The notes under the pieces were generated by a model. That model saw nothing but the letters and a program-made list of their open reading frames with translations, did not search any database and was not told where the DNA came from. A stretch of DNA of 64,000 nucleotides from Minisyncoccia bacterium (GTDB lineage Bacteria > Patescibacteriota > Minisyncoccia > Phycocordibacterales > UBA6065). This document shows positions 2,931 to 16,732 of this stretch, piece by piece (position 1 is the stretch's first letter; the number at the start of each line of letters is the position of its first letter). Position numbers and translations under genes: made by a program. The stretch covers positions 16,701 through 80,700 of the forward strand of contig JBIIJY010000001.1 in the NCBI GenBank assembly GCA_044233485.1, in the 5' to 3' direction.

Positions 2931-3473
2931 TTAGTAAAACCAAGGAATAAGACCAACTCTCTTTTTATACTCAGAATATGTAGCCCCGAACTTCCTTTCA
3001 AGGAAATGATCTTCTTTTTTGATTACATGTAATATGAAAAATATAACAGGTGCCATCAAGAATACTAGCCAATAATTTAACTGAAGATAAATACCAACAC
3101 CAGTAAGTATTGCTCCAATGTAGTAAGGATGTCTGGTAAATTTGTAGGGTCCTCCTGTAAATAGAGTATCTCCAGAATCATCACCCATAAATCCCCAGTC
3201 CTTGTTTCTATTTAATCTAGTCCAGAACATGAGAATTAATCCGAATAAGGAAAACATTACACCTAAGTAATAAGTGGGATTAAAGATATTAGTTTCTACT
3301 ATTTCCAACAAAAGTAGTATTGGTACCAAAAAAGATATAAATATCTCAATAAATTTTCTGCCCCAATAGATAAACGAGGTGACCATTCTTCTGTTTCTCT
3401 TTCCTTGGACTAAAGTAAAGCTATTTCGGAAAACAATGAATGCGAAAAGTAATATTAATGTTACTATTTTCAT
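2931..3473 (-). CDS. Isoprenylcysteine carboxyl methyltransferase (ICMT/PEMT) family membrane methyltransferase.
   Basis: C-terminal motif TRHPYYIGAIL...EEDHFLERKFGATYSEYKKRV (RHPxY...EE...FG..Y..Y). Multi-TM, 180 aa. Confidence 0.8.
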   Translation of the reverse strand: MKIVTLILLFAFIVFRNSFTLVQGKRNRRMVTSFIYWGRKFIEIFISFLVPILLLLEIVETNIFNPTYYLGVMFSLFGLILMFWTRLNRNKDWGFMGDDSGDTLFTGGPYKFTRHPYYIGAILTGVGIYLQLNYWLVFLMAPVIFFILHVIKKEDHFLERKFGATYSEYKKRVGLIPWFY

Positions 3474-3521
3474 GGGTTACATTTTATCACTTTTAGACAT
3501 TTTTGATATAATTTACGGATC
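3474..3521 (-). promoter_or_regulatory. Conserved ~45-bp upstream element (promoter/5' leader module), copy 1, directly upstream of the ICMT gene.
   Basis: cattttatcacttttagacatttttgatataatttacggatcaa is near-identical to 6939-6985, which lies upstream of the CDPS operon. On the coding strand it reads ...TAAATTATATCAAAA.G.CTAAAAGTGATAAAATG, with a TGaTAAAAT-like -10. Confidence 0.5.
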
Positions 3522-3616
3522 AAGTGTGAGCCACAATAATTTGTTCGTCGTCACTCACAAATTTTCCAGCCCCGGACTCGACTGTTTTTCTTGCTAGAAA
3601 AACATGTCTCCGTCTT

Positions 3617-3687
3617 CACAAAATTTAAAAAGAGTGAAGCAGTTCACTCTTTTTAGAAACCAAATTTTGTGACCCTATCGGGATTCG
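3617..3687. repeat. Hairpin (terminator-like) plus an exact 21-nt copy of the tRNA-Glu 3' end (att-like remnant), copy 1.
   Basis: cacaaaatttaaaaagagtgaagcagttcactctttttagaaaccaaattttgtgaccc is followed by tatcgggattcg. 3667-3687 equals 11530-11550 of tRNA-Glu. The hairpin stem differs from the copy at 7138-7196 only by compensatory changes. Confidence 0.8.
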
Positions 3688-3744
3688 GTCACGTATAAAT
3701 TTCTGCTGAAATTTTACGCGACCCCGCCTCGCGCCGTCGCGCTC
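3677..3744. repeat. R1 copy B (3677-3723) fused to the 28-bp GC-rich motif R2 (3717-3744).
   Basis: R2 cgcgaccccgcctcgcgccgtcgcgctc is identical to 59214-59241, and a diverged relative lies at 60450-60476. It is followed by the long hairpin gtcacaatagtaaaaagccacgtgtagtggctttttattattgtgac and another ttgtgaccct at 3790-3799. Confidence 0.75.
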
Positions 3745-4014
3745 GGGCCGTCACAATAGTAAAAAGCCACGTGTAGTGGCTTTTTATTATTGTGACCCTA
3801 CTGTCCCTGGAGTGGAACTCCATAGAACAAGAGATTTTACGCTGGAAAAGTATTGTTTCTGTTTATGGTCATTTGATTATGTCTCCAAGTATGGCTTGAA
3901 AAGCTTACTTTTAAGTCTGTGATAGGAAGTTATTTCTACCAGTCTAGTTATAGGACTGTATTAGGTTAAACGGTTGGTGAAAAAATTAAATCTTCAGGCG
4001 ATACTGCTCCTACA

Positions 4015-4891
4015 TCAGGGCTGGCCTTTTTTTGGTTCACGTACTTTCATTTCCTTCGTGGCGAACATCTCGGCGAGTGTTTGATGGGTACTGGTGTCTC
4101 GCTTATCAACCTCGCCAGTTTTAGGGTTGTACATCTCTTTCTTTAACAAATCACTGATGATGTAAGCGGGTATGGATGAGGTAAGGGACGTTCCGTATGT
4201 GTATGTAAGTGCTATACCAGGAGGCACTCTAATGGCACCTCTTTCTATTAAACCTCCATAAAGTAATACTTCCACTTTACCTGTCACAGAATTAAAAATA
4301 GTAGAGCCACTTGAACCGCTTTGCACCATTGCGTCTATGAGTAAGCCGTGGGGATGTGAACAAGGAAAGGGTTGAACCGCACTCACAATACCTCGTTGCA
4401 ATACGGGGTTAATTTGATGTACCCAACCTGGGGCACGAAGTGTTCTGGTTCCCATTGGAAACCCTGCAATAAAAACCTCGTCGCCTTCGTTGAGATTGAA
4501 TGATGTTTCTAGTTAGAACAGGTAATCCTTTTGCTTTCACATAAATAAATCCAACATCAGGCACGTCTGTTCCGTAATGAGCACCCTCGACTGGTTCTTC
4601 TCTCGTTAATGTTCCAACTCCCTCGACTTCAAGAAATACTGATGCCATTCCTTTGCCTGGAAGGTTTTGTAGATACATTACCAGAATTGGCCATTCGTCG
4701 TCTGGTGCTCCCTTGCGTCTTGGTAGTTGCTTAATCACGTTTACAACGTGGTCATTGGTTACTATCAACCCGTCTTCTCGAACAATAAAGCCAGTCCCGA
4801 TAATATCGGGCATATCAGGATTTTGAGAAATTCTCCCGACTATGGCTACGATTGCTGGCTTTAGTTTTTGGTATTGAGAAGTGAATGACAT
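4015..4891 (-). pseudogene. Trypsin-like (S1, HtrA/DegP-like catalytic domain, no PDZ) serine protease interrupted by a frameshift. The two ORFs are 4409..4891 and 4015..4455.
   Basis: The upstream ORF carries the His motif LIVTNDHVV and ...KGLPVLT. The downstream frame, extended upstream past its ATG, reads SFNLNEGDEVFIAGFPMG and contains the Ser motif SGSSGSTIF. The frames meet near 4500-4515 (ctaactagaaac), where each frame hits a stop in the other. Confidence 0.65.
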
Positions 4892-4895
4892 AGTT

Positions 4896-5762
4896 TTATT
4901 TTGTATCGGGTTCTTTCTTGTGCCATGCCATAATCTTTTTCAGTTGCTCCTTCGTAAGCCCGCTATCGAAAGGCTTGAACAGCCTGTCAGCTTCTTGGAA
5001 ACCCTCTTGGTCTTTGAGGTACAAAAATGAGTTCTTAAGGTTCAGTAAAATTTTGATGAGTAAGTCTTTAACAATATGAAAATTATTTACGCAGTAGTGG
5101 TAACCAGCCTGCTCTTCAAAGTCGAAATCTAGCTTAAATACGTCAACGCTTTCAAGTAGTCCAGCATATCCGCTGTGGGTGTAACTAGACATAATCTTGT
5201 AACACTTCCCAAGCATTTCCTTGATAGGCTGTTCCTCGTTCTCGTAAAATTCTGCAAGCTCGGTATTCAAATGTTCGTGATAAAATTCTCTGGCATCTAC
5301 GTTGCCAATGATTTTGCCTTTGAACCACTTATCAAGAAGGGCCTTATTCTTATCGTCCCAGAACAGCATTGCCAAATCTAATGCTTCCGTACCAGAACGT
5401 GATAGCTCCATCGCTTCAAGGTTCCTACCGTGACGACAAACTAGAAGCGTAGTCTTCAAATTACCGAAAGCCCTCGCAAGGAGAAGATAAGCAGCCGCAG
5501 TCTTTGTTTGTTCGGTAATAGATGTGAGATAAGGGAAAATCCTTCGTATCAATTTCTCTACATCAGGAAGGATTGCCTCAATTTCATCGCATAGCTGGTT
5601 TATTTCCGCCACGCTCCTTGCCTTATCGACTGCGGGAGAATCTGGGTTCGCTTGTGCATATAGAAAGCCCTTCTTTTTATTTATATCTGCAACACGGTTT
5701 TTTACGTATTCTTCAGGAGTTTCGTCTTTTTCAAGCTCTTCAGGGAAAGGAGGTTTTGTCAT
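4896..5762 (-). CDS. Hypothetical protein (288 aa), last gene of the CDPS-SET operon.
   Basis: Its start overlaps the SET stop by 4 nt (ATGA). Acidic N-terminus, probably all-alpha. No motif identified by eye. Confidence 0.6.
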   Translation of the reverse strand: MTKPPFPEELEKDETPEEYVKNRVADINKKKGFLYAQANPDSPAVDKARSVAEINQLCDEIEAILPDVEKLIRRIFPYLTSITEQTKTAAAYLLLARAFGNLKTTLLVCRHGRNLEAMELSRSGTEALDLAMLFWDDKNKALLDKWFKGKIIGNVDAREFYHEHLNTELAEFYENEEQPIKEMLGKCYKIMSSYTHSGYAGLLESVDVFKLDFDFEEQAGYHYCVNNFHIVKDLLIKILLNLKNSFLYLKDQEGFQEADRLFKPFDSGLTKEQLKKIMAWHKKEPDTK

Positions 5763-6232
5763 AGGGATGTAGAAAGATAGTCAGAAATATAACCTTTGTA
5801 TTTTTCCTTTATTTCATTAGGAAGCTCTTTATAACAACCGAGCCTGCCTCTGCATATTGCGGAACCGCACTTACAGATACGCTCTTCTTCGGAAAGCTCG
5901 TCGCCATATTCATATCCAATCATTGCATAGTCTATGGCGAGTTCCTCGTCTTTCTTTATATTCCTCATTGCAACAAATAATGTGCGTTCCTTTACTCCCA
6001 GATTTGGGTCACACGAATGGCAAATAAACTGGCAGAGGTTTCCTTCTGGCATGGTAGGATCAATCTTCAAGCTCTCACTGATTGGTATGGTGTAAGCAGT
6101 TGCGTTTTCAACGATTGAACCAAAGGCTACGAACACAACCTCATCCTTTATAAAATCACGTTGGGCAAATAGGCTTTTCCCGTACTTACCTGTGTCCTTT
6201 GAGTAAACGTTGTCTTCGATTTTGTAAGTCAT
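5759..6232 (-). CDS. SET-domain methyltransferase.
   Basis: FICHSCDPN (NHSCxPN), ELAIDY (ELxFDY), and a post-SET Cys cluster CKCGSAICRGRLG. 157 aa. Confidence 0.85.
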   Translation of the reverse strand: MTYKIEDNVYSKDTGKYGKSLFAQRDFIKDEVVFVAFGSIVENATAYTIPISESLKIDPTMPEGNLCQFICHSCDPNLGVKERTLFVAMRNIKKDEELAIDYAMIGYEYGDELSEEERICKCGSAICRGRLGCYKELPNEIKEKYKGYISDYLSTSL

Positions 6233-6236
6233 AAAT

Positions 6237-6926
6237 TTAGCGAACCACGAGGAGAACTTTAGGTTTTGTGTCCATTACTTTGTCACGAACATCGAGGAAT
6301 AATTCTCCTTTCTGTATGCCTTCTACCAGTTCAGGTAGCTTGCCGTCGTAGGGATAGGCGTATGCATCGAATACCAATCCTTTGATTGGTGTACGTCCCA
6401 GGATTTCAGGAAATTCTGCTATGACATACGAACCCAGCTTTACCTTATCTTCGTAAGAGAAGACCCTATTTTCTTTGCTAGTAAAACTATCCACGAGTTC
6501 GATAATCGCACTTTTGAACTCACTATCTGTGTCGTACTTCTTGTTTAGGAAATCTAGCTTCTCTTGGAAGGCAGGGGTAAAAAGTTCGTCCCACTTTGCG
6601 AAGTGTAATTTCGAGAACTGGTCAGAAGTGAGCTTGGATTTTGCCAGAACTTTAACCCCTTCGAGTATTTCGTCTCCAAGTCGCAGGGCAGTCTCTTTCG
6701 CTTTTTCAGGAGACTTGCGGTTGCGCACTTCGATATTGATTGCGTGAATGCCATCGGCCACGTAAATGACCACGAACTCTTTTGTATGTTCAAGTGACCA
6801 CTCAACCAGACCCACAATGTTTTCAGTAGAAAACCACTTGTTTCCCAAGCTTATTCCAACCCCTATATTGTATTGCTTTGCGTAGAGGTCTTTTTCTGTT
6901 CCGCCTCGAACTTTGTATAACCGCAT
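6237..6926 (-). CDS. tRNA-dependent cyclodipeptide synthase (CDPS, AlbC/YvmC family).
   Basis: 229 aa. IGVGISLGNKWFSTEN matches the AlbC catalytic pocket IGISAGNSYFSQKN (GxS..N..F). VVIYVADGIHAINIE matches VVYVDTHIDEM. SYVIAEFPEIL matches NYVLAEAPLF (YxxxE). An aromatic-rich YAYPYD region matches the Y202 region. The SET gene follows 4 nt downstream. Confidence 0.75.
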   Translation of the reverse strand: MRLYKVRGGTEKDLYAKQYNIGVGISLGNKWFSTENIVGLVEWSLEHTKEFVVIYVADGIHAINIEVRNRKSPEKAKETALRLGDEILEGVKVLAKSKLTSDQFSKLHFAKWDELFTPAFQEKLDFLNKKYDTDSEFKSAIIELVDSFTSKENRVFSYEDKVKLGSYVIAEFPEILGRTPIKGLVFDAYAYPYDGKLPELVEGIQKGELFLDVRDKVMDTKPKVLLVVR

Positions 6927-6938
6927 AAAAGTAAAGTC

Positions 6939-6985
6939 ATTTTATCACTTTTAAGCCATTTTGATATAATTTACCTATCAATCAC
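6939..6985 (-). promoter_or_regulatory. Conserved ~45-bp upstream element, copy 2, directly upstream of the CDPS operon.
   Basis: cattttatcacttttaagccattttgatataatttacctatcaa is near-identical to 3477-3521. Confidence 0.5.
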
Positions 6986-7137
6986 CTCCCTGTGTAGTCA
7001 ATGCAGATCCCTCCCAGAGATTTGCATTTTGTGTCACGAGTTACTAAGTGTTCTCGATCGCTTTGCAATCTGCGAGCACTAAGCACTCGCGACCCCAGCT
7101 CGGCACTTTTTCAGCTGAAAAAGTATGCCTGCGCTTT

Positions 7138-7196
7138 CACAAAATTTAAAAAGACTGGAGCAGTCCAGTCTTTTTGGAAACCAAATTTTGTGACCC
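7138..7196. repeat. Hairpin plus a 9-nt tRNA-Glu 3'-end core (ttgtgaccc), copy 2. It forms the left junction of the GC-rich element.
   Basis: cacaaaatttaaaaagactggagcagtccagtctttttggaaaccaaattttgtgaccc. The stem agactgga/tccagtct corresponds to agagtgaa/ttcactct in copy 1, with base pairing preserved. Base composition changes abruptly after 7196. Confidence 0.8.
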
Positions 7197-7480
7197 ACAA
7201 CAGGACATACCTCGAACTTGGGACCGGATTCTCGACACCTTGGCAGCGTTGAACATGAAGGGCCTTCTGCCTGACCTGGCATCCGTTGTGGAACCAGAGC
7301 ATGCCTCTTTGAACGATGGCCTGCCGGATCACTTTGGCACCTAGCCCAAGCGGTTCGCCCCCCTTGCGGCGGATCAGGAAAGCATCAAAATCCGCCGACG
7401 AGATCGAGTGTCTGTTGGACGTGTGTCAGCAGCTCGGTCTCATCGATCACGGCGGTATCGGCGGCACGGGTAGAGCTGTG

Positions 7481-7717
7481 ATGGAACCGTTTGCCGTATT
7501 CGTTGATCAGTTCGATGCGGGACAGGATCGTCTGGGCTGCCGCCAGCGGATCAGCCGGCTGAGCGTCGCGAATCTTCCCGATGAAATCACCGAGCCCTGT
7601 TGTCCCGAGGACGCCCGACCGAATCCGGAACGGGTTCAGACCAAGGCGGCCCTGGAGGAACTGCTGGGCGACGACGAGGACGGTCTGGCCGCCACCTTCG
7701 AGGATTACCGCCTATGA
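7481..7717 (+). CDS. Hypothetical small acidic protein (start uncertain: 7316 or 7481).
   Basis: High GC at third codon positions in this frame from about 7480. The stop overlaps the next ORF's start (ATGA at 7714-7717). Confidence 0.4.
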   Translation: MEPFAVFVDQFDAGQDRLGCRQRISRLSVANLPDEITEPCCPEDARPNPERVQTKAALEELLGDDEDGLAATFEDYRL

Positions 7718-7986
7718 GCGCCCCGAAGTTCGGCCTGGGCCGGTTGGTGGCCACGCCCAATGCGTTGGCCCATGTCTCCCACGCGGAGATCCTGAAGGCC
7801 GTGTCCCGGCATCTGGCCGGCGATTGGGGCGACTGCGGGGCGGAGGATTGGGCAACCAATGACGCCGCCCTGGTGCAGGGCACCCGCCTGCTGTCGGTGT
7901 ATCACGCCGTGGACCGGACGAAGTTCTGGCTCATCACGGAATGGGACCGGTCGGTGACGACCGTGCTCCTGCCCGAAGACTACTGA
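7714..7986 (+). CDS. Hypothetical protein (~90 aa), translationally coupled to the upstream ORF.
   Basis: MSAPKFGLGRLVATPNALAHVSHAEILKAVSRHLAGDWGDCGAEDWATNDAALVQGTRLLSVYHAVDRTKFWLITEWDRSVTTVLLPEDY has protein-like composition. Confidence 0.5.
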   Translation: MSAPKFGLGRLVATPNALAHVSHAEILKAVSRHLAGDWGDCGAEDWATNDAALVQGTRLLSVYHAVDRTKFWLITEWDRSVTTVLLPEDY

Positions 7987-8124
7987 TTTCACGGCCTCCC
8001 ACTTCTGCGGAGGCCGCTTTTCTTCCCGCCGGCCCTTAAACCAAGGGGCCGTCCACGCTCCCGGCGGAGAGACTCACACCCAGAGCTACCTGCATCAACA
8101 GGCGGACGGCCCGAGAGAGACATC

Positions 8125-8631
8125 ATGGAAGAACCCGAGTTGTTCAAGGTCGCAGTGCGACCTCCCAAGAAGAAGAAGCCACCCCAGGAATACAAGGTGG
8201 TGGCGTTGCGGGACTGTCCGCTGCCGGAGTATCTGCTCAAATGCGAGTCCCCGGAGCACGCGGCCGACTACTGGCGGCGGTGCATCAGCACCCTGCCGAG
8301 TTACGATCCCGACAAGGAATCGTTCGTCGTGCTGTTGCTGACCACCCGCAAGCACGTCAAGGGCCACCAGGTGGTGACCACCGGCATCCTCGACCAGGTG
8401 CTGGTCCATGCCCGCGAAGTGTTCCGGCCCGCGATTGTGGCCGCCGCCCATGCGGTGGTCCTCATGCACAACCACCCCGGGGGAGACCCCTCGCCCAGCG
8501 AGGCGGACCTTCGTGTCACGCGTGACCTGATCCGCGCCGGCCAGCTCCTCAAGATCGAGGTGCTGGACCATGTCATCGTCACCCCGTTCCGGCACTGTTC
8601 ACTGCGGACGTTGGGTTACTTTGCAGGCTGA
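8125..8631 (+). CDS. radC: RadC-like JAB/MPN-domain protein.
   Basis: HNHPGGDPSPSEADLRVTRDLIRAGQLLKIEVLDHVIV matches the RadC/JAB motif HNHPSG..PS..D...T..L......I.LLDH.IV. Confidence 0.85.
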   Translation: MEEPELFKVAVRPPKKKKPPQEYKVVALRDCPLPEYLLKCESPEHAADYWRRCISTLPSYDPDKESFVVLLLTTRKHVKGHQVVTTGILDQVLVHAREVFRPAIVAAAHAVVLMHNHPGGDPSPSEADLRVTRDLIRAGQLLKIEVLDHVIVTPFRHCSLRTLGYFAG

Positions 8632-8635
8632 CCAA

Positions 8636-8672
8636 GCCCGCTCCGATGGAGCGGGCTTTTGTTGGCGATGAA
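8636..8672 (+). terminator. Rho-independent terminator after radC.
   Basis: aagcccgctcc-gatg-gagcgggctt followed by ttgttgg. Confidence 0.6.
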
Positions 8673-8831
8673 TTACGCTAAGAAGCTCCCGAGACTGCGA
8701 AACTGGTTCTAGGCGAACCTCGTGGCTTCGTTTCGGGCTACTGGCAAACCGCATGTCCTGTAAGGCGTGAAAGTTGAGAACCAGTCGCCCAGCCGACGCT
8801 GTTTCGGCTGGGCGGCACGCCTCGCGTTGCA

Positions 8832-9125
8832 TCATCCGCCTTTTCGGCGGACTTCTTTGACGACGACGGTCGCAATTTCCATAACAACGGCCCCGTGTTG
8901 TGCCAAAAATCGCACGGCAGGCCGAGCCCATATCGGCGCCAAGACGACCAGCGATCCCGTGACCACGTCGTGCCAACCGCGGTGCCAGCCGAACATCGCA
9001 AGCATGCCCAGGCCGGCGAAGCTGATCGGTATCCAATTGACGCTTTTCGAGATATGTGGTGCAGATTTCTTGCGCCCTTGCCGGCGGCGACGATTTGCGT
9101 TATCGTTATCTTGTTTACGCATAAC
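8832..9125 (-). CDS. Possible small membrane protein (~98 aa). Ambiguous against overlapping plus-strand ORFs.
   Basis: MRKQDNDNANRRRRQGRKKS... followed by a hydrophobic stretch WIPISFAGLGMLAMFGWHRGWHDVVTGSLVVLAPIW. The plus-strand ORFs 8767..9138 and 8895..9146 have poorer composition, but a plus-strand terminator at 9174 argues that something on the plus strand ends there. Confidence 0.3.
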   Translation of the reverse strand, partial: VMRKQDNDNANRRRRQGRKKSAPHISKSVNWIPISFAGLGMLAMFGWHRGWHDVVTGSLVVLAPIWARPAVRFLAQHGAVVMEIATVVVKEVRRKGG

Positions 9126-9173
9126 AGTGTTAGTGTGATTGTTTAATTGTGTAAACACCCGGGTTTTTCCGGG

Positions 9174-9211
9174 TAGGCCGCCTGCTGTAACAGGCGGCCT
9201 TTTTTGTTTGG
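9174..9211 (+). terminator. Rho-independent terminator (second of two tandem hairpins).
   Basis: aggccgcctg-ctgtaa-caggcggcct followed by tttttt. It is preceded by the hairpin acccgggtttttccgggt. Confidence 0.55.
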
Positions 9212-9300
9212 ACCGCACTTGCAGCCCACAGCCGACACTAGCAAGCGACTGCGCGAAGATGTTTGGGGTTTGGGTGGCGCATGGTGATTGGAAATGGTCG

Positions 9301-9624
9301 TTAAGCGGCCTGGCCAGCAATGGTCGCCAGAACCTGACGACGCTGGGTTTGCTGGTGGCCGGTCTGGGCAGCGAGTGCCTTGGCACGGGCCGCCACATCT
9401 CGGGCTACTTCGCCATAGAGACCGCTGAAGAGTTCGCTCGCCGAGCGCTGGTAGATGGCCTCGTAGGCGAGGGCCGCCCTAAGTCCGGGTTCACGGGCGA
9501 AGCGTTCATGCCGCGAGACCTTGGCCCCGCTCTGGGTGCCCAGCAGAAAGGCCACGTCCTCCTGGGAGAGTCCCAGGCGTTTGCGGTTCGAAAGCAGGTA
9601 GTTGGGTAGCAGGGTTGAAGACAT
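9301..9624 (-). CDS. XRE-family helix-turn-helix transcriptional regulator.
   Basis: LGLSQEDVAFLLGTQSGAKVSRHERF is a classic HTH_3 segment. It is transcribed divergently from the small ORF and the recombinase. Confidence 0.75.
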   Translation of the reverse strand: MSSTLLPNYLLSNRKRLGLSQEDVAFLLGTQSGAKVSRHERFAREPGLRAALAYEAIYQRSASELFSGLYGEVARDVAARAKALAAQTGHQQTQRRQVLATIAGQAA

Positions 9625-9872
9625 GGGGGTGGAACTCGCGGGGAGTCCGAGCCTTCACCCTACCGGATCGGTGAAACTATCGTAGGCGGGAACCTTTGCC
9701 GCTGACGGCAAGTGCGAAGGCCAACACCGGACAAATCAGTCCGGTGGAAGGATTAGGATTATACCATGTTATTACCCGTCCGTCAAAGATGCCCCCGAAA
9801 GGCGAAGGTGTCGTCACCGGCAGACATCCCCGTCTTCGGCCGCCAAGATTGAGGCGGTAGAGTGGGTCGCAC

Positions 9873-10106
9873 ATGAAGCCAAACCCCACTCCCACCCTGC
9901 GTGAGCTGTATCCCCACTTCACCGAGCACGAGCTGGCCGAGGCAGAGGATAACGTCGAACGCTATCTGGCGCTCATGCTGCGGATATTTGATCGCCTGGA
10001 GGCCGAGGCTGCCCCGTCGCCCGATCCATTGTCCCCTGACCCGGATGTGATACAATGCTCATTGCCGGATTCAGCCCCGCTTCCCCGGCCTCTCCCACAC
10101 CCATGA
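9873..10106 (+). CDS. Small protein (77 aa) translationally coupled to the serine recombinase. A possible directionality or accessory factor (speculative).
   Basis: Its stop TGA (10104-10106) overlaps the recombinase ATG (10103-10105). Confidence 0.45.
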   Translation: MKPNPTPTLRELYPHFTEHELAEAEDNVERYLALMLRIFDRLEAEAAPSPDPLSPDPDVIQCSLPDSAPLPRPLPHP

Positions 10107-11602
10107 ACGGATACATCGGCTACATCCGTGTCTCCACGGTGAAACAAGGAACCCAAGGAGTCTCGCTGCAGGAACAGCGCGAGGCGATTTTGCGTTACGC
10201 CGAACGCAATCGACTGCCGATTGGCATCTGGCTGGAGGAGATGGAAACCGCGGCCAAGCAGGGTCGTCCCGTGTTCAACCGCGCACTCAAACTGCTTCGT
10301 AGCCGAGGCGCCCGGGGAATCATCCTGCATAAGCTGGACCGGGGAGCGCGCAACCTCCGGGATTGGGCGGCTATCGGCGAGCTTTCTGATCAAGGCGTTG
10401 AGATTCACTTCGTTTCCGAAGGGCTGGATCTCCAGTCCAGGGGTGGCCGACTTTCGGCCGACATTCAGGCGGTCGTGGCCGCCGATTACATCCGCAATTT
10501 GCGTGAGGAGACCCGCAAGGGATTTTACGGACGTCTGAAGCAGGGCCTCTACCCGCTGCAGGCTCCGCTCGGCTATGTCGATCAGGGCCGGGGAAAGGCC
10601 AAGACGATTGACCCCGTGATGGGACCGATCGTCCGGCAGGCGTTCGAGCTTTATGCCAGCACCCACTTCAATCTGGAATCCTTGGGCACGGAATTGCATA
10701 GGCGGGGACTCCGCAACCGCCGCGGGGGACGGGTGACCCGCAATGGACTCTCCACGCTGCTCAACAATCCCTTCTATTTCGGCCTCATCCACCTTCAAAA
10801 GACGGGTGAGACCTTCGCGGGCGTGCATGAACCGCTCATTGGCAAGGTCCTCTTTGACCGCGTGCAGGGAGTTCTCACCGGCAAAACCAACACCCGCAGT
10901 CAGCGGCATCGGTTCCAGTATCGCCGGCTGTTTGCCTGTCAGTCCTGCCGTCATTCACTCGTGGGCGAGCGCCAGAAGGGGCACGTCTATTACCGTTGCC
11001 ACGGCAAATCCTGCCCGCCGTCTTCCGTCCGCGAGGAGGCCATCGGGATGCAGGTGGAAAACCTGCTCCGGAAAATCCGTTTCAATGAACAGGAACAGGC
11101 CTACTTCAAAGCCCGACTCCGCCTGATGAAAACGACGTGGGCCAATCGGCAGGAACAGGAGGCCAGACTTTTGAACATCAAGCTGGGCCAGCTCAGGGAT
11201 CGCCTCAACCGATTAACCGACGCCTACCTGGACCAGGCCCTCGATAAAACCATGTTTGAAGCCCGGAAACAGAGCCTGTTGCTGGAGCAGAGGGAGACCG
11301 AGGCGCAGCTAGCCAACCTGATCCGTCACCACGGCACTTCGCCGGATCGGCTTGAGAAATTCCTCGAACTGGCCGGCGACGCCTGGTTGAGCCACCAGAA
11401 GGCATCGCCCGAGGAACAGCGTGAACTGGTCAGCATCTTCACCTCGAACCGGCAGGTGCAGGGAAAAAAGGTCGAATTGGAGCCGTCGCTTCCGTTTAGG
11501 GAAATAGCGGAACGGTCGACTTCGGATGGTTGTGACCCTATCGGGATTCGAACCCGAGTTACAGGCTTGAAAAGCCCGTGTCCTGACCAGACTAGACGAT
11601 AG
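10103..11602 (+). CDS. Large serine recombinase (resolvase/invertase catalytic domain, recombinase domain, zinc ribbon, coiled coil).
   Basis: MNGYIGYIRVSTVKQ carries the catalytic Ser. Zn ribbon: CQSCRHSLVGERQKGHVYYRCHGKSC. Coiled-coil C-terminus. The ORF nominally reads through tRNA-Glu (11533-11606); the true stop and the role of the last ~25 codons are uncertain. Confidence 0.88.
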   Translation: MNGYIGYIRVSTVKQGTQGVSLQEQREAILRYAERNRLPIGIWLEEMETAAKQGRPVFNRALKLLRSRGARGIILHKLDRGARNLRDWAAIGELSDQGVEIHFVSEGLDLQSRGGRLSADIQAVVAADYIRNLREETRKGFYGRLKQGLYPLQAPLGYVDQGRGKAKTIDPVMGPIVRQAFELYASTHFNLESLGTELHRRGLRNRRGGRVTRNGLSTLLNNPFYFGLIHLQKTGETFAGVHEPLIGKVLFDRVQGVLTGKTNTRSQRHRFQYRRLFACQSCRHSLVGERQKGHVYYRCHGKSCPPSSVREEAIGMQVENLLRKIRFNEQEQAYFKARLRLMKTTWANRQEQEARLLNIKLGQLRDRLNRLTDAYLDQALDKTMFEARKQSLLLEQRETEAQLANLIRHHGTSPDRLEKFLELAGDAWLSHQKASPEEQRELVSIFTSNRQVQGKKVELEPSLPFREIAERSTSDGCDPIGIRTRVTGLKSPCPDQTRR

Positions 11603-11606
11603 GGCC
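11533..11606 (-). tRNA. tRNA-Glu (anticodon TTC).
   Basis: GGCCCTATCGTCTAGTCTGGTCAGGACACGGGCTTTTCAAGCCTGTAACTCGGGTTCGAATCCCGATAGGGTCA. It closely resembles E. coli tRNA-Glu. Anticodon loop TTTTCAA. No CCA is encoded. Confidence 0.85.
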
Positions 11607-11700: not shown

Positions 11701-11787
11701 GGAAGCGTGGCTGAGTGGTTGAAAGCACCGCTCTCGAAAAGCGGCATAGGGGTAACCTTATCGGGAGTTCAAATCTCCCCGCTTCCG
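11701..11787 (+). tRNA. tRNA-Ser (anticodon CGA), type II with a long variable arm.
   Basis: GGAAGCGTGGCTGAGTGGTTGAAAGCACCGCTCTCGAAAAGCGG...GGGAGTTCAAATCTCCCCGCTTCCG. The acceptor, D, anticodon (CTCGAAA), variable and T arms all fold. Confidence 0.85.
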
Positions 11788-12045
11788 CAGGATAGGAAGT
11801 GTTGGGGACACTTCCGTGGAGATTTGAAAGGACTTTCCTGAAAGACGAGAAGTTTGTGGCTTCGAGTATTTCGGAAAGTCACCTGCCGATGTAATCGGAA
11901 AATCTCCCCGCTTCCGCAGGATAGGAAGTGTTGGGAACACTTCCGTGGAGATTTGAAAGGACTTTCCTGAAAGACGAGAAGTTTACTGCTTCGAGTATTT
12001 CGGAAAGTCACCTGCCGATGTAGTCGGAAAATCTCCCCGCTTCCG
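11771..12045. repeat. Tandem 129-bp direct repeats (2 full units plus 17 nt), each beginning with the tRNA-Ser 3' end.
   Basis: aaatctccccgcttccg occurs at 11771, 11900 and 12029. The units are near-identical and contain the internal palindrome ggaagtgttggggacacttcc. Confidence 0.85.
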
Positions 12046-12056
12046 CAGGAGATTAT

Positions 12057-15000
12057 TTACTCTAAAAATAGCCCCCAACTCTCGAGCAAGGCCTGTGTTT
12101 GGAATTGCAAGAATTCAAGGAGTGCCCGCTCAGTATTTTGACCGAACGTAGAAGTTTCTCTTCCTGGAGAGCCCGGACCAGTCTCGACGATCTCGAACCC
12201 GCTACGGTTAAGGAAGATTTGAAGATCTCGTACTCCGCTTGTGGCTGTGTTCAAGTTACCTACAGCCTCTTCACTTGCTGGGGTACTCACAGGCAATTGA
12301 ACACTCTGTACTACCGGAGCTTGAGGTGAAGCAGGAACCACAGGTATAGGCAGGGTCGTGGCGATCCGTGCCAGTCGACGTCCTGCATTTCCAGTACTTG
12401 AAGCCGGTTGAGGCGCTTGAGTGGCCACTTCTTCTACAGGCTGCGGACGCAACTGGATAGTCAGAACACGTAGTTCAACCCCACGCACACCGTCATCGGC
12501 TGGAAAAAATAATTTGTTTCCGAGAAGTTTTGCCTCGGACATCTCAGGACTTGAATCCGAACTCCCCGGATAGATATCGTCAACTAGGACAGTACCTTCA
12601 GTAGTACCGTCGCTTTTCCAGAGCTCGATACCATTCACGCCATCGGTCGCATTGAAATAGATTGTACCATCGATATCGACCAGACCACTCGGTTCACTAC
12701 TTCCTGTTTGATGTATATCCTTCACCATCACCGTTCCTTCTTCGGTGCCGTCGGATTTCCAGAGTTCGAATCCATTCACACCATCGATTGCCCTAAAATA
12801 CAAGTTATTATTGTAATTTAAAAAATATTGCGGCGAGGATGCATCTGAGTTTGCTGGAGCGATATTTTTCACCATGACCGTTCCCTCAGTGGTGCCGTCG
12901 GATTTCCAGAGTTCTAGATCATTCGCGAAACCATCAAACCCTGAAAAAAATAACGTGCCGTTGACAGTCAGCGCAAAATGCTCGAAACCAACATTCCCTG
13001 GCGGGTAGGTATCCTTCACAAGCACGGTGCCCAGAGTAGTACCGTCAGTCTTCCAGAGTTGAGTGAGCGAATTAAAGAAGTAGATGACATTCTCACCGAC
13101 TGTAAAGTTACTTAATTCTGCTGAATCAATATCTGTGACCACTATCGTCCCGTCCGTAGTGCCATCAGTTTTCCAGAGTTGTCTCCCATGCGTACCGTCA
13201 TTTGCAGTGAAATAAAGTGCATTTTTCCAAATGAAAAAACTAGTGGGGTCTGAGTAACCACCGTCTGGATTTATATCTTTTACCAGTACCGTTCCACCTT
13301 CAGTGCCATCAGTTTTCCAGAGTTCAGTTCCATATACATTGTCAGGGTCCGTAGCGCCAAAATAAACCACTCCATTGTAGGAGGCAATCTCTGTTGGAGT
13401 AGGGGCATCGATAATTTTTTGCGTTCCTTCACTTGTCCCATCGCTTTTCCAGAGTTCTCCATTACCATCAACATCAAAAGCAAAGAAATATAGTTGATTT
13501 CCGTTAACTGTGAGTACAGAGGGATCTGAACCAGAAAGCCCCGGGACAATATCTTTAACCATCACCGTCCCCTCGGTGGTGCCGTCACTTTTCCAGAGCT
13601 CGATACCATGAACCCCGTCATCGGCAATAAAATAGAAATTTTCTTTAAAGAGAATACTGCCCCCTGGATATGAACTGACAGTATTTGTATTCAAGTCTTC
13701 AATTAGCACCGTCCCCCCTTGCGTACCGTCACTTTTCCAGAGTTCATAGCCACGAACCCCATCATCGGCAGTAAAATACAACGCACCACCGCTCACAAGA
13801 AAACCTTGAGGGTTTGAATATCCAGGCTCAGCCCTATCTTCAGTATTTATATCTTTCACCATTACTGTTCCCACATCTGTCCCATCACTTTTCCAAAGTT
13901 CAAACCCATTAACACCATCGTCTGCTGAAAAATATAATGTACCAGCCGCACCAACCATGCGTCCGCCTGAAAGCCCATCGGTTTCGTCTCCACTGATATC
14001 CTTCACCATCACTGTTCCTTCTTCGGTACCATCACTTTTCCAGAGTTCAAACCCATTCACTCCGTCATTCCCTCCAAAGTAAAGCGTGCCGCCAATATCA
14101 ACTAGTGCAGATGGTAAATTCGTCTCTCCTTCAGTCGTATCAACATCCTTCACCATTACCGTTCCTTCTTCGGTACCATCACTTTTCCAGAGTTCATAAT
14201 CCTCATCAGTTGAAGCCGCCACAAAAAACAGGGTGCCACCTGAAACTACCAAACTATTGACCCCAGAACTACTATTTCCGGGATTTATATCTTTCACAAC
14301 CACCGTACCTAGTGTAGTACCGTCGGTCTTCATGAGCTCATACCCAGCGGCATTAGTACTCGCGCCGAAATATAAAACACCGTCGAATTCTGCAGCTGCG
14401 AAACCTTCAGATATCCCATCTCCACCTGTATAAAGGTCTTTTACGAGCACGGTGCCCAGAGTAGTACCGTCGGTCTTGTACAGCTCGTATCCAGTCCCGT
14501 CATTATAGCCTCTAAAATACAAATTTCCGCCAGCGTTAATGAATTGAGTAGTTACCGAGCCTGCTGGTCCCGGGCGAATATCCTTCACCATCACCGTTCC
14601 TTCTTCCGTGCCGTCACTTTTCCAGAGTTCAGATCCCGTAACGTCATTGTCCGATGCCGCGGAAAAGAATATCTCTCCATTTAGAATACCTACCTCACGA
14701 CCATCAAGCTGGAGAACCCCTTCTCCGGCTCCAGGATTGATATCCTTCACTATCACCGTCCCCTCCTCGGTACCGTCACTTTTCCAGAGTTCAGTACCGA
14801 GATTTGTCAAAGCAGAAAAAAAGAACACGTCCCCGACGACGTACAAATCACCGATCTGCGCATTCGCAACTCCAGCAGCAAACTGTTTTACAAGCATCGT
14901 ACCCTCAGAAGTTCCATCACTCTTCCAAATTTGATTATTATTCCGGACAAAATAAGTTGATCCGAGAAACTCGATTAATTCAGAAGAGATGCCGGCTGAG

Positions 15001-15146
15001 TCCGTATCGGTATTTATATCTTTCAAGAGCACTGAAGAGGCGCGCGCAGACTGCGCGGTTACCAGACTCGCAAAGATAACTAGCAAGAGTGCTGTCTTGA
15101 CGACGAAATTCACTTTTCTAGTATAGCAGAAAGTACCACTCGTCAA
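12057..15146 (-). CDS. Large secreted cell-surface protein: about 17 ELWxxDGT-type repeats (likely beta-propeller) plus a C-terminal peptidoglycan-binding (PG_binding_1-like) domain.
   Basis: Signal peptide. Repeated ELWKSDGTEEGTVMVKDI... units. The C-terminus, RDLQIFLNRSGF...GPGSPGRETSTFGQNTERALLEFLQFQ, resembles PG-binding domain 1. Confidence 0.85.
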   Translation of the reverse strand: MTSGTFCYTRKVNFVVKTALLLVIFASLVTAQSARASSVLLKDINTDTDSAGISSELIEFLGSTYFVRNNNQIWKSDGTSEGTMLVKQFAAGVANAQIGDLYVVGDVFFFSALTNLGTELWKSDGTEEGTVIVKDINPGAGEGVLQLDGREVGILNGEIFFSAASDNDVTGSELWKSDGTEEGTVMVKDIRPGPAGSVTTQFINAGGNLYFRGYNDGTGYELYKTDGTTLGTVLVKDLYTGGDGISEGFAAAEFDGVLYFGASTNAAGYELMKTDGTTLGTVVVKDINPGNSSSGVNSLVVSGGTLFFVAASTDEDYELWKSDGTEEGTVMVKDVDTTEGETNLPSALVDIGGTLYFGGNDGVNGFELWKSDGTEEGTVMVKDISGDETDGLSGGRMVGAAGTLYFSADDGVNGFELWKSDGTDVGTVMVKDINTEDRAEPGYSNPQGFLVSGGALYFTADDGVRGYELWKSDGTQGGTVLIEDLNTNTVSSYPGGSILFKENFYFIADDGVHGIELWKSDGTTEGTVMVKDIVPGLSGSDPSVLTVNGNQLYFFAFDVDGNGELWKSDGTSEGTQKIIDAPTPTEIASYNGVVYFGATDPDNVYGTELWKTDGTEGGTVLVKDINPDGGYSDPTSFFIWKNALYFTANDGTHGRQLWKTDGTTDGTIVVTDIDSAELSNFTVGENVIYFFNSLTQLWKTDGTTLGTVLVKDTYPPGNVGFEHFALTVNGTLFFSGFDGFANDLELWKSDGTTEGTVMVKNIAPANSDASSPQYFLNYNNNLYFRAIDGVNGFELWKSDGTEEGTVMVKDIHQTGSSEPSGLVDIDGTIYFNATDGVNGIELWKSDGTTEGTVLVDDIYPGSSDSSPEMSEAKLLGNKLFFPADDGVRGVELRVLTIQLRPQPVEEVATQAPQPASSTGNAGRRLARIATTLPIPVVPASPQAPVVQSVQLPVSTPASEEAVGNLNTATSGVRDLQIFLNRSGFEIVETGPGSPGRETSTFGQNTERALLEFLQFQTQALLESWGLFLE

Positions 15147-16695: not shown

Positions 16696-16732
16696 ATCGC
16701 GGGGCGGCCAAAGGTCGCCCCGCTTTTTTTAT
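16696..16732. terminator. Bidirectional rho-independent terminator.
   Basis: gcggggcggcc-aaag-gtcgccccgc followed by ttttttt. Confidence 0.6.

Follow-up and report, generated by a model that had tools for sequence, protein, structure and literature searches.

What is a SET-domain methyltransferase doing beside a cyclodipeptide synthase (CDPS) in the genome of a Minisyncoccia bacterium? The two genes follow one another on the minus strand of contig JBIIJY010000001.1 (assembly GCA_044233485.1), in a stretch of 64,000 nucleotides (positions 16,701 to 80,700) that was analysed as a whole and that we call the window. The appeal of CDPS pathways is that decorated diketopiperazines can be made with just a few small genes, and the decorations known so far are introduced by P450s, oxidases, prenyltransferases and Rossmann methyltransferases. 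Our answer, which we hold with moderate confidence, is that the CDPS and the SET protein make up a minimal two-gene cassette in which the SET protein serves as the tailoring enzyme, and that the two genes behind them are a separate mobile module. Open reading frame (ORF) calls on the window place the four genes, all in the same orientation, as follows.

6926..6237, minus strand: predicted CDPS of the XYP subfamily, ParcuCDPS-like, 229 aa (PF16715, TIGR04539, PDB 7QB8)
6232..5759, minus strand: predicted SET plus post-SET methyltransferase of the CDPS-linked subfamily, 157 aa (PF00856)
5762..4896, minus strand: 288-aa all-helical protein, a probable distant member of the DUF5677 superfamily
4891..4015, minus strand: trypsin-like (S1C, Trypsin_2) serine protease gene, disrupted here (PF13365 in intact copies)

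The first three genes have the positions and spacing given in an earlier, sequence-only reading of this DNA: the SET gene starts 4 nt past the CDPS stop, and the ATG of the 288-aa ORF overlaps the SET TGA in an ATGA. That reading proposed translational coupling of three genes. The tight spacing is consistent with coupled translation within one transcription unit, but the unit has four genes, the overlooked fourth being the protease gene, which starts 4 nt past the stop of the 288-aa ORF. A terminator scan found no convincing terminator within 4015-6926, and the genes would be co-transcribed as far as a hairpin that lies about 220 nt beyond the protease stop.

3750..3796, no strand assigned: perfect-stem hairpin with 21-nt arms and a 5-nt loop, likely operon terminator (inverted repeat I2, 95% complementary)

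The 229-aa protein passes the curated thresholds of both CDPS profile hidden Markov models (HMMs), with 37.1 bits against Pfam PF16715 (cut-off 27) and 63.3 bits against TIGR04539 (cut-off 45), in agreement with the earlier assignment. Its best solved relative is ParcuCDPS (PDB 7QB8), together with the point mutants of that structure, and the two proteins align without a gap from residue 1-229 on 1-229 (E=1.4e-58). This full-length, gapless alignment to a crystal structure points to the class-I aminoacyl-tRNA synthetase-like Rossmann fold. The window CDPS is 41% identical to ParcuCDPS (locus L020) and has the same length, and ParcuCDPS numbering transfers directly: the catalytic residues S26, D58, Y167, E171 and Y191 are all present, and an alignment of 43 homologues shows no change at these five or at P192. 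The motifs that had been quoted in support of the assignment, GISLGNKWFSTEN and YVIAEFPE, were found as stated, at residues 24-36 and 167-174. The sequence-only reading had matched the pocket residue for residue to AlbC and YvmC. The catalytic Ser/Tyr/Glu are indeed shared, since AlbC S37/Y178/E182/Y202 correspond to ParcuCDPS S26/Y167/E171/Y191, all four of which the window CDPS carries, but the pocket is of the XYP/ParcuCDPS type and not of the AlbC/YvmC (NYH) type: L40, Y191 and P192 give the XYP signature, and the His-recognising P1 residues Y55, E174 and Y189 are kept. To judge by these alignments, the window protein is a genuine CDPS of the XYP subfamily with a ParcuCDPS-type pocket, and it is a new member of an already characterised clade.

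When produced in Escherichia coli, ParcuCDPS (CDPS 90), the enzyme of Parcubacteria bacterium RAAC4_OD1_1, gives cyclo(His-Pro) and cyclo(His-Glu) (PMC5816076, PMC7613923), and the roles of the P1 residues Y55, E174 and Y189 come from work on this enzyme (PMC7613923). By analogy the window CDPS would also be specific for His. The product of ParcuCDPS was assayed, whereas that of the window CDPS is proposed from a likeness in the P1 pocket. The two loci differ in that L020 has no SET gene within 10 kb. The sequence-only reading did not expect a CDPS in a reduced-genome bacterium resembling the candidate phyla radiation (CPR), a view that does not stand: ParcuCDPS has already been assayed and crystallised, and a CDPS in such a genome is to be expected because the family, which forms 119 clusters in a collection of 5.8 billion proteins, has homologues widespread in Patescibacteria and in DPANN-type archaeal metagenome-assembled genomes (MAGs).

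The second protein scores 43.4 bits against PF00856 (cut-off 22.4), which bears out its earlier assignment as a SET protein; this is its sole Pfam match, and the Pfam scan found no Methyltransf_* family and so no Rossmann-fold S-adenosylmethionine-binding domain like that of known CDPS tailoring methyltransferases (Amir_4628, Ndas_1145). The AlphaFold model is confident (a pLDDT of 94.9) and has the SET fold. The HSC motif, the catalytic Tyr of the DY motif and the post-SET CxCx4C zinc cysteines are all present, and 42 SET homologues show no variation at G18, H72-S73-C74, Y102 or the post-SET cysteines C120/C122/C127. It is thus a canonical SET/post-SET protein, in a setting that we did not find in the literature. 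The SET-I motif YTIPI is conserved in CDPS-linked SETs and absent from unlinked relatives. A phage origin was considered and rejected, as neither the SET profile nor that of the 288-aa protein found relatives in IMG/VR contigs.

We assessed how often the two genes occur together in two surveys. A CDPS profile scan of one genome per species gave 37 loci, and only one of them, L005 from a Patescibacteria MAG, has a SET gene, 5 nt downstream of the CDPS; its CDPS and SET are 49% and 72% identical to the window proteins. A SET profile scan of metagenome contigs gave 80 loci, and in 48 of these the SET shares 44% identity or more with the window SET, which defines the SET subfamily. A CDPS is adjacent to, overlapping with or fused to the SET gene, or separated from it by one intervening transporter gene, in 24 of the 48 subfamily loci and in 0 of the remaining 32, where SET identity is at most 38%. 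The subfamily loci are arranged in these ways.

18 of the 24 loci: CDPS directly upstream of SET
2 of the 24 loci: CDPS directly downstream of SET (one being a frameshifted SET beside a CDPS below the Pfam cut-off)
1 of the 24 loci: CDPS upstream, as a fragment at the contig edge
2 of the 24 loci: CDPS fused to SET
1 of the 24 loci: CDPS upstream of an intervening SSF-type transporter (L079), then SET
10 of 48 loci: protein of ~245 aa without Pfam match ("c2") directly upstream of SET
3 of 48 loci: same transporter as in L079 upstream of SET, then contig end
3 of 48 loci: SET at contig edge
8 of 48 loci: unrelated neighbours of SET

In 18 loci the gap from CDPS to SET lies between -20 and +14 nt. 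Across 17 non-redundant full-length pairs the mean identity is 38% for the CDPS and 57% for the SET, the SET proves the better conserved of the two in 99% of comparisons, and the two identities are moderately correlated (Spearman 0.43); at L041, for example, the SET is 77% identical to that of the window and the CDPS only 31%. The closest relatives of the window CDPS, at 84% identity, are found in L131/L132 in the arrangement CDPS-SET-NYN, L005 reads CDPS-SET-RmlD-like, and elsewhere the flanking genes encode a glyoxalase, an HI0933-like flavoprotein or a Bro-N protein.

Could the two genes simply be small island cargo, deposited together at tRNA sites and with no functional link? At the window locus islets are stacked beside a tRNA-Glu gene, and several related loci are directly preceded by tRNA genes, as such an account would have it. 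We nevertheless think it very improbable, given that order, strand and near-zero spacing are kept over the 17 distinct pairs with CDPS identity down to ~30%. Because the pair recurs with divergent CDPSs and among differing flanking genes, and because the distant SETs never have a CDPS neighbour, the adjacency is better read as functional than as accidental: the CDPS-SET pair is a conserved unit, and the pairing is real, widespread and apparently undescribed. The dependence is one-sided, of SET on CDPS and not the reverse, as expected for a tailoring enzyme. Since most subfamily SETs have a CDPS and most CDPSs of the clade have no SET, the pattern is that of an optional tailoring enzyme.

In the mechanism that we propose, the CDPS would load His-tRNA(His) in P1 together with a second aminoacyl-tRNA (for Pro or Glu, by analogy with ParcuCDPS) and release a cyclo(His-X) diketopiperazine via the usual Ser26 acyl-enzyme ping-pong mechanism. 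The SET protein would then be an optional tailoring enzyme that transfers a methyl group from S-adenosylmethionine to the released product or to a precursor still bound to the enzyme, so acting on a small molecule, and the likely product in this organism would be a methylated His-containing diketopiperazine. The P1 pockets of the partner CDPSs bear on what is methylated. The window, L005, L050, L051 and L066 have pockets of the Y/E/Y type, and many partner CDPSs carry L/M/L, V/L/L or L/V/I at positions 55/174/189, resembling variants of ParcuCDPS whose specificity was switched to Leu or Phe by engineering (PMC7613923). With partner pockets that differ in this way, the SET protein cannot have methylation of the His side chain as its general role, a candidate that the hydrophobic pockets weaken. 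A SET target common to differing cyclodipeptides should be the ring or alpha-nitrogen, or the residue from the second pocket, and is less likely to be a P1 side chain that occurs in a single product. One candidate for a shared target would be the alpha-amine of an aminoacyl or dipeptidyl intermediate, and the main rival to all of these is a macromolecule.

Beyond these pockets, several observations weigh against a small-molecule tailoring role. Eight of the 48 subfamily loci have no CDPS-like neighbour, and some members of the SET subfamily have GNAT, HAD or other genes as neighbours instead. The only CDPS-SET fusion, found in L087 and L088, looks like a deletion chimera and carries little weight as Rosetta-stone evidence. 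No Shine-Dalgarno-like sequence is present at any of the 4 operon starts. By sequence profile, the nearest solved proteins are SET domains of the KMT2A/MLL1 type (E 7e-16, compared with 7.6e-10 for BurB), the closest sequence relatives overall being KMT2/MLL, NSD and SETD2, and the full protein-lysine machinery, with catalytic Tyr102 and the post-SET zinc cluster, is retained. The SET is also strongly conserved whatever the P1 pocket of its partner, which fits a constant macromolecular target. The protein might accordingly be an ordinary protein-lysine methyltransferase whose substrate is the CDPS, a translation- or tRNA-associated protein or a nucleoid protein of the host, with the pairing reflecting regulation or a shared role as effectors and not tailoring of the cyclodipeptide. 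A host target comes into consideration because CPR and DPANN organisms live as episymbionts.

We consider a lysine methyltransferase of this kind unlikely, although it is the chief rival to our reading. Adjacency to or overlap with very divergent CDPSs is kept in 24 to 37 of 45 informative loci, the dependence runs in the direction seen for tailoring enzymes, and the SET-I motif is specific to the CDPS-linked subfamily. The window SET differs further from KMT2/MLL-type histone-lysine methyltransferases in having no accessory domains or partner subunits and in belonging to a prokaryotic operon with a CDPS. Furthermore, the best structural match of the SET model is a small-molecule enzyme, BurB (PDB 9L4T), by a small margin over MLL1. 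To our knowledge, BurB is the only known small-molecule SET methyltransferase. This enzyme of Burkholderia thailandensis is an S-methyltransferase of free methionine in the malleicyprol/dimethylsulfoniopropionate pathway (PMC12542666), and BurB and SETD3 are precedents for small-molecule and non-lysine SET substrates. BurB shows only a precedent for such chemistry: it is 22% identical to the window SET, acts on free methionine and is unlinked to any CDPS, and the window SET is closer to the KMT2 type by sequence, with a classic CxCx4C post-SET.

Two features of individual loci may be recorded here. The fusion (L087:2007-2900 and L088:5479-6372, from two samples) is a 297-aa ORF that joins CDPS residues 1-178 to SET residues ~36-153, and because parts of both domains are missing (the CDPS YP motif, the SET N-terminus and one post-SET Cys) we read it as a deletion chimera. 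An SSF-type sodium:solute symporter is encoded between CDPS and SET in L079 (162-2810) and directly upstream of SET in L062, L063 and L080, and it may be an exporter or importer of the product or a precursor.

The ~245-aa c2 protein replaces the CDPS upstream of SET at L042, L044, L045, L052, L060, L064, L070, L075, L076 and L082; a further member was seen at L031:11553-12341. The c2 proteins have no Pfam match. In an hhalign comparison with the CDPS family (E about 1e-4), all four catalytic motifs fall in register, with GISMS, YsD, F.LEE and CYPGKP of c2 aligning with S26, D58, Y167-E171 and Y191-P192. We regard c2 as a probable, not proven, CDPS-like clade that is very divergent and has gone unrecognised. 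The SET gene thus serves as a genomic marker that retrieves a probable new CDPS-like family missed by current HMMs.

The remaining two genes of the operon tell a different story. The sequence-only reading had placed the 288-aa protein in no recognisable family, and it now appears to be a divergent, distant member of the DUF5677 superfamily. Its direct match to DUF5677 (PF18928) is weak, at 20.7 bits and below the cut-off of 27.1, and the same weak match recurs in 9 of 22 homologues, but a profile search of 1.84 billion representatives gave 166 relatives, the distant members P0376, P0383 and P0388 among which pass the threshold at 34-39 bits. Like DUF5677 proteins, which are reported to be enriched next to serine recombinases in Bacillota (bioRxiv 10.1101/2025.10.07.681051), its relatives occur on recombinase-bearing elements, and some lie beside a restriction-modification system or a resolvase; it differs in its sub-threshold score and in being ~120 residues longer than the 166-position model. 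The HEPN superfamily was rejected for this protein, which does not show the Rx4-6H motif on a four-helix bundle. One family member, P0259 (457 aa), is fused to a Ser_hydrolase domain.

The protease gene is split in the window into ORFs 4891..4409 and 4455..4015 by a 2-bp deletion (TG) near 4514, and both halves score below the PF13365 cut-off. It is intact (292 aa) in four assemblies (L001-L003 and a JGI/NCBI contig); the L001 copy, with TNDHV and GSSGS motifs, scores 60.8 bits (cut-off 27.6) and is 100% identical to the window over this stretch save for the deletion, which is either a strain-level pseudogene mutation or an assembly error.

In another account all four genes make up one functional system, for instance in defence or signalling, with the cyclodipeptide acting as the signal and with sensor and effector supplied by the DUF5677-like protein and the protease. 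The 4 nt/ATGA/4 nt spacing without an internal terminator, the recurrence of the identical four-gene block in the four other assemblies, the island location next to a serine recombinase and the partial matches of the protease to candidate-defence models of PADLOC can all be cited for such a system, which we nonetheless judge improbable. The four assemblies represent the same organism, with proteins 100% identical to those of the window, and the window protease is frameshifted. Neither the 288-aa protein nor the protease was found by tblastn at any of the 116 other CDPS or SET loci (L005-L120), and no CDPS or SET gene occurs in the contexts of seven 288-aa homologues. Each pair also stands by itself. 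L131/L132 have the CDPS-SET pair without the other two genes, and L128 has a 78%-identical 288-aa homologue followed by a 77%-identical trypsin-like protease without CDPS-SET, on an element that also carries serine recombinase, SNase, FtsK_gamma and CSD genes. Because of these loci, the four-gene operon is a lineage-specific junction of two separate pairs, and the trio whose conservation the sequence-only reading had suggested looking for does not extend to other genomes: the homologues of the 288-aa protein are without CDPS or SET, and the nearest CDPS-SET relatives are without the 288-aa gene.

We propose instead that the genes for the DUF5677-like protein and the protease move as a pair of their own, probably related to conflict or defence, which would have landed directly behind the SET gene in the window lineage alone. 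A defence or conflict role is suggested by the mobile and restriction-modification contexts, the reported enrichment of DUF5677 near serine recombinases and the partial protease matches (PDC-M35A and PDC-S45). Against this part of our reading, the role is drawn from context, PADLOC-DB 2.0 has no match for the 288-aa protein, and a DUF5677 ORF tested elsewhere is not among the ORFs reported to give phage defence. PADLOC-DB 2.0 has no match for the SET protein either and only a spurious one for the CDPS (14.8 bits); the components match no defined PADLOC system, and a known anti-phage defence system was rejected on that ground. In the 288-aa family a constant gene appears with variable partners 2-16 nt downstream (L125:6835-7782, L126:6853-7947, L129:6876-7475), which include the trypsin-like protease, a CxxC-rich 364-aa protein and 315- and 199-aa proteins; outside L128, the gene that follows encodes one of the unrelated 199-, 315- or 364-aa proteins, or there is none.

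How the operon came to this position can be read from its surroundings, where the following features occur.

11532..11606, minus strand: intact tRNA-Glu(UUC), the integration target of the stacked islands (ARAGORN, Rfam)
7197..11531, no strand assigned: inserted element of 57-64% GC between tRNA-Glu and the CDPS islet, outside the operon (composition, ORFs)
8125-8631, 9301-9624 and 10055-11602: RadC, XRE-like and serine recombinase genes of that element (Pfam labels in other assemblies)
7107..7196, minus strand: decayed tRNA-Glu 3'-end remnant (~7180-7196) and terminator hairpin (7148-7175), the upstream boundary of the CDPS islet
6938..6981, minus strand: 44-nt upstream module shared with the PEMT/ICMT gene, putative promoter/operator (repeat D6)
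3586..3733, minus strand: tRNA-Glu 3'-end copy, hairpin and 58-nt repeat, where the CDPS islet ends downstream and the PEMT islet begins (repeats D3, D4, D9)

The operon indeed lies between tRNA-Glu attachment remnants, as had been proposed, within a composite island. A perfect 21-nt copy of the tRNA-Glu 3' end is present at 3667-3687 (2 matches in the window against 0 expected by chance) and a shorter one at 2802-2816. Repeat D3 joins 7107-7196 to 3586-3675 at 82% identity, and the terminator hairpin is duplicated (7148-7175 and 3626-3655) at two of the three tRNA-end copies. A 58-nt repeat ending in a partial tRNA-Glu 3' end is 91% identical between 2802-2859 and 3676-3733; its two copies bracket the PEMT/ICMT gene (2931-3473) as a small islet of its own, of 31-37% GC. 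Against a genome baseline of 44-49% GC, the content is 40-44% in the operon, 31-37% in the PEMT and nucleotidyltransferase genes and 57-64% across 7197-11531. The tRNA-end copies and repeats are the mark left when elements insert one after another at a single tRNA gene. The most recent insertion is the 57-64% GC element, whose serine recombinase ORF runs into the intact tRNA-Glu and which other assemblies carry too.

The earlier reading had also described a promoter module of ~45 bp shared with the ICMT gene. It is shared, over 44 nt at 86% identity (6938-6981 and 3480-3523), each copy ending 6-11 nt before a start codon, and it contains an extended -10-like TGATAAAAT (TGnTAAAAT) and a TTGATA/TATCAA inverted repeat, features that suggest a promoter. 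The module is lineage-specific, being absent upstream of the CDPS in L131, L132 and L005, and we rejected it as a general feature of CDPS operons.

In several SET loci the CDPS or c2 gene is preceded, at a distance of 6-640 nt, by tRNA genes on the same strand, which are far commoner there than tRNA density would predict.

L005:3945-4016, tRNA-Gln
L060:1009-1081, tRNA-Cys
L082:45-118, tRNA-Arg
L049:3716-3787, tRNA-Trp
L059:272-342, tRNA-Trp
L071:1646-1808, tRNA-Ala and tRNA-Ser

These genes could be integration hot spots or dedicated substrate tRNAs. In the window the tRNA neighbour of the CDPS is tRNA-Glu, and ParcuCDPS makes cyclo(His-Glu). Farther along, a 129-nt tandem repeat at 11771-12050 (2.2 copies, 96-100% identical) begins in the 3' end of a tRNA-Ser(CGA) gene (11701-11788) and may represent further duplicated tRNA-end attachment sites. 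At 12574-12924 three diverged copies (71-83%) of a 63-nt unit, 141-147 nt apart, lie in a 1029-aa ORF (12057-15146), which indicates a repeat-domain protein.

The sequence-only reading had called a SET-domain protein an unfamiliar partner for a CDPS, and this judgement holds. Full-text searches of a library that lacks most subscription journals yielded nothing relevant that joins a SET domain with a CDPS, with a diketopiperazine or with CPR or DPANN organisms. In two broad CDPS surveys the partners are limited to P450, oxidase, nitroreductase and Rossmann methyltransferase. The nearest parallels are the clusters in which a CDPS is combined with a Rossmann-fold (class I) methyltransferase, such as Amir_4628 and Ndas_1145/1149 (PMC5767969, PMC5816076). 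They share with the window the minimal cassette of a CDPS and a methyltransferase dependent on S-adenosylmethionine, and they differ in fold, the SET (class V) fold being unrelated, and in host, with Actinobacteria there and CPR/DPANN-type MAGs here. Given that CDPSs in CPR bacteria were already known, what is new is apparently the class of partner enzyme.

A conserved SET-fold partner would bring new tailoring chemistry to CDPS pathways, and a CDPS-linked SET would lengthen the very short list of SET proteins that act beyond protein lysine. More broadly and more tentatively, it is possible that a dedicated SET subfamily supplies the CDPSs of the CPR, and possibly of DPANN archaea, with methyltransferases for small molecules or enzyme-bound intermediates, yielding methylated diketopiperazines and marking the c2 clade. 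If true, SET chemistry on non-protein substrates would gain a second known class, after BurB, and ultra-small symbionts would be making methylated diketopiperazines of a family not yet described. Two short genes are all that is needed to put the question to the test. That a two-gene cassette has been kept in uncultured, reduced-genome and host-dependent lineages points to a small molecule that serves that lifestyle.

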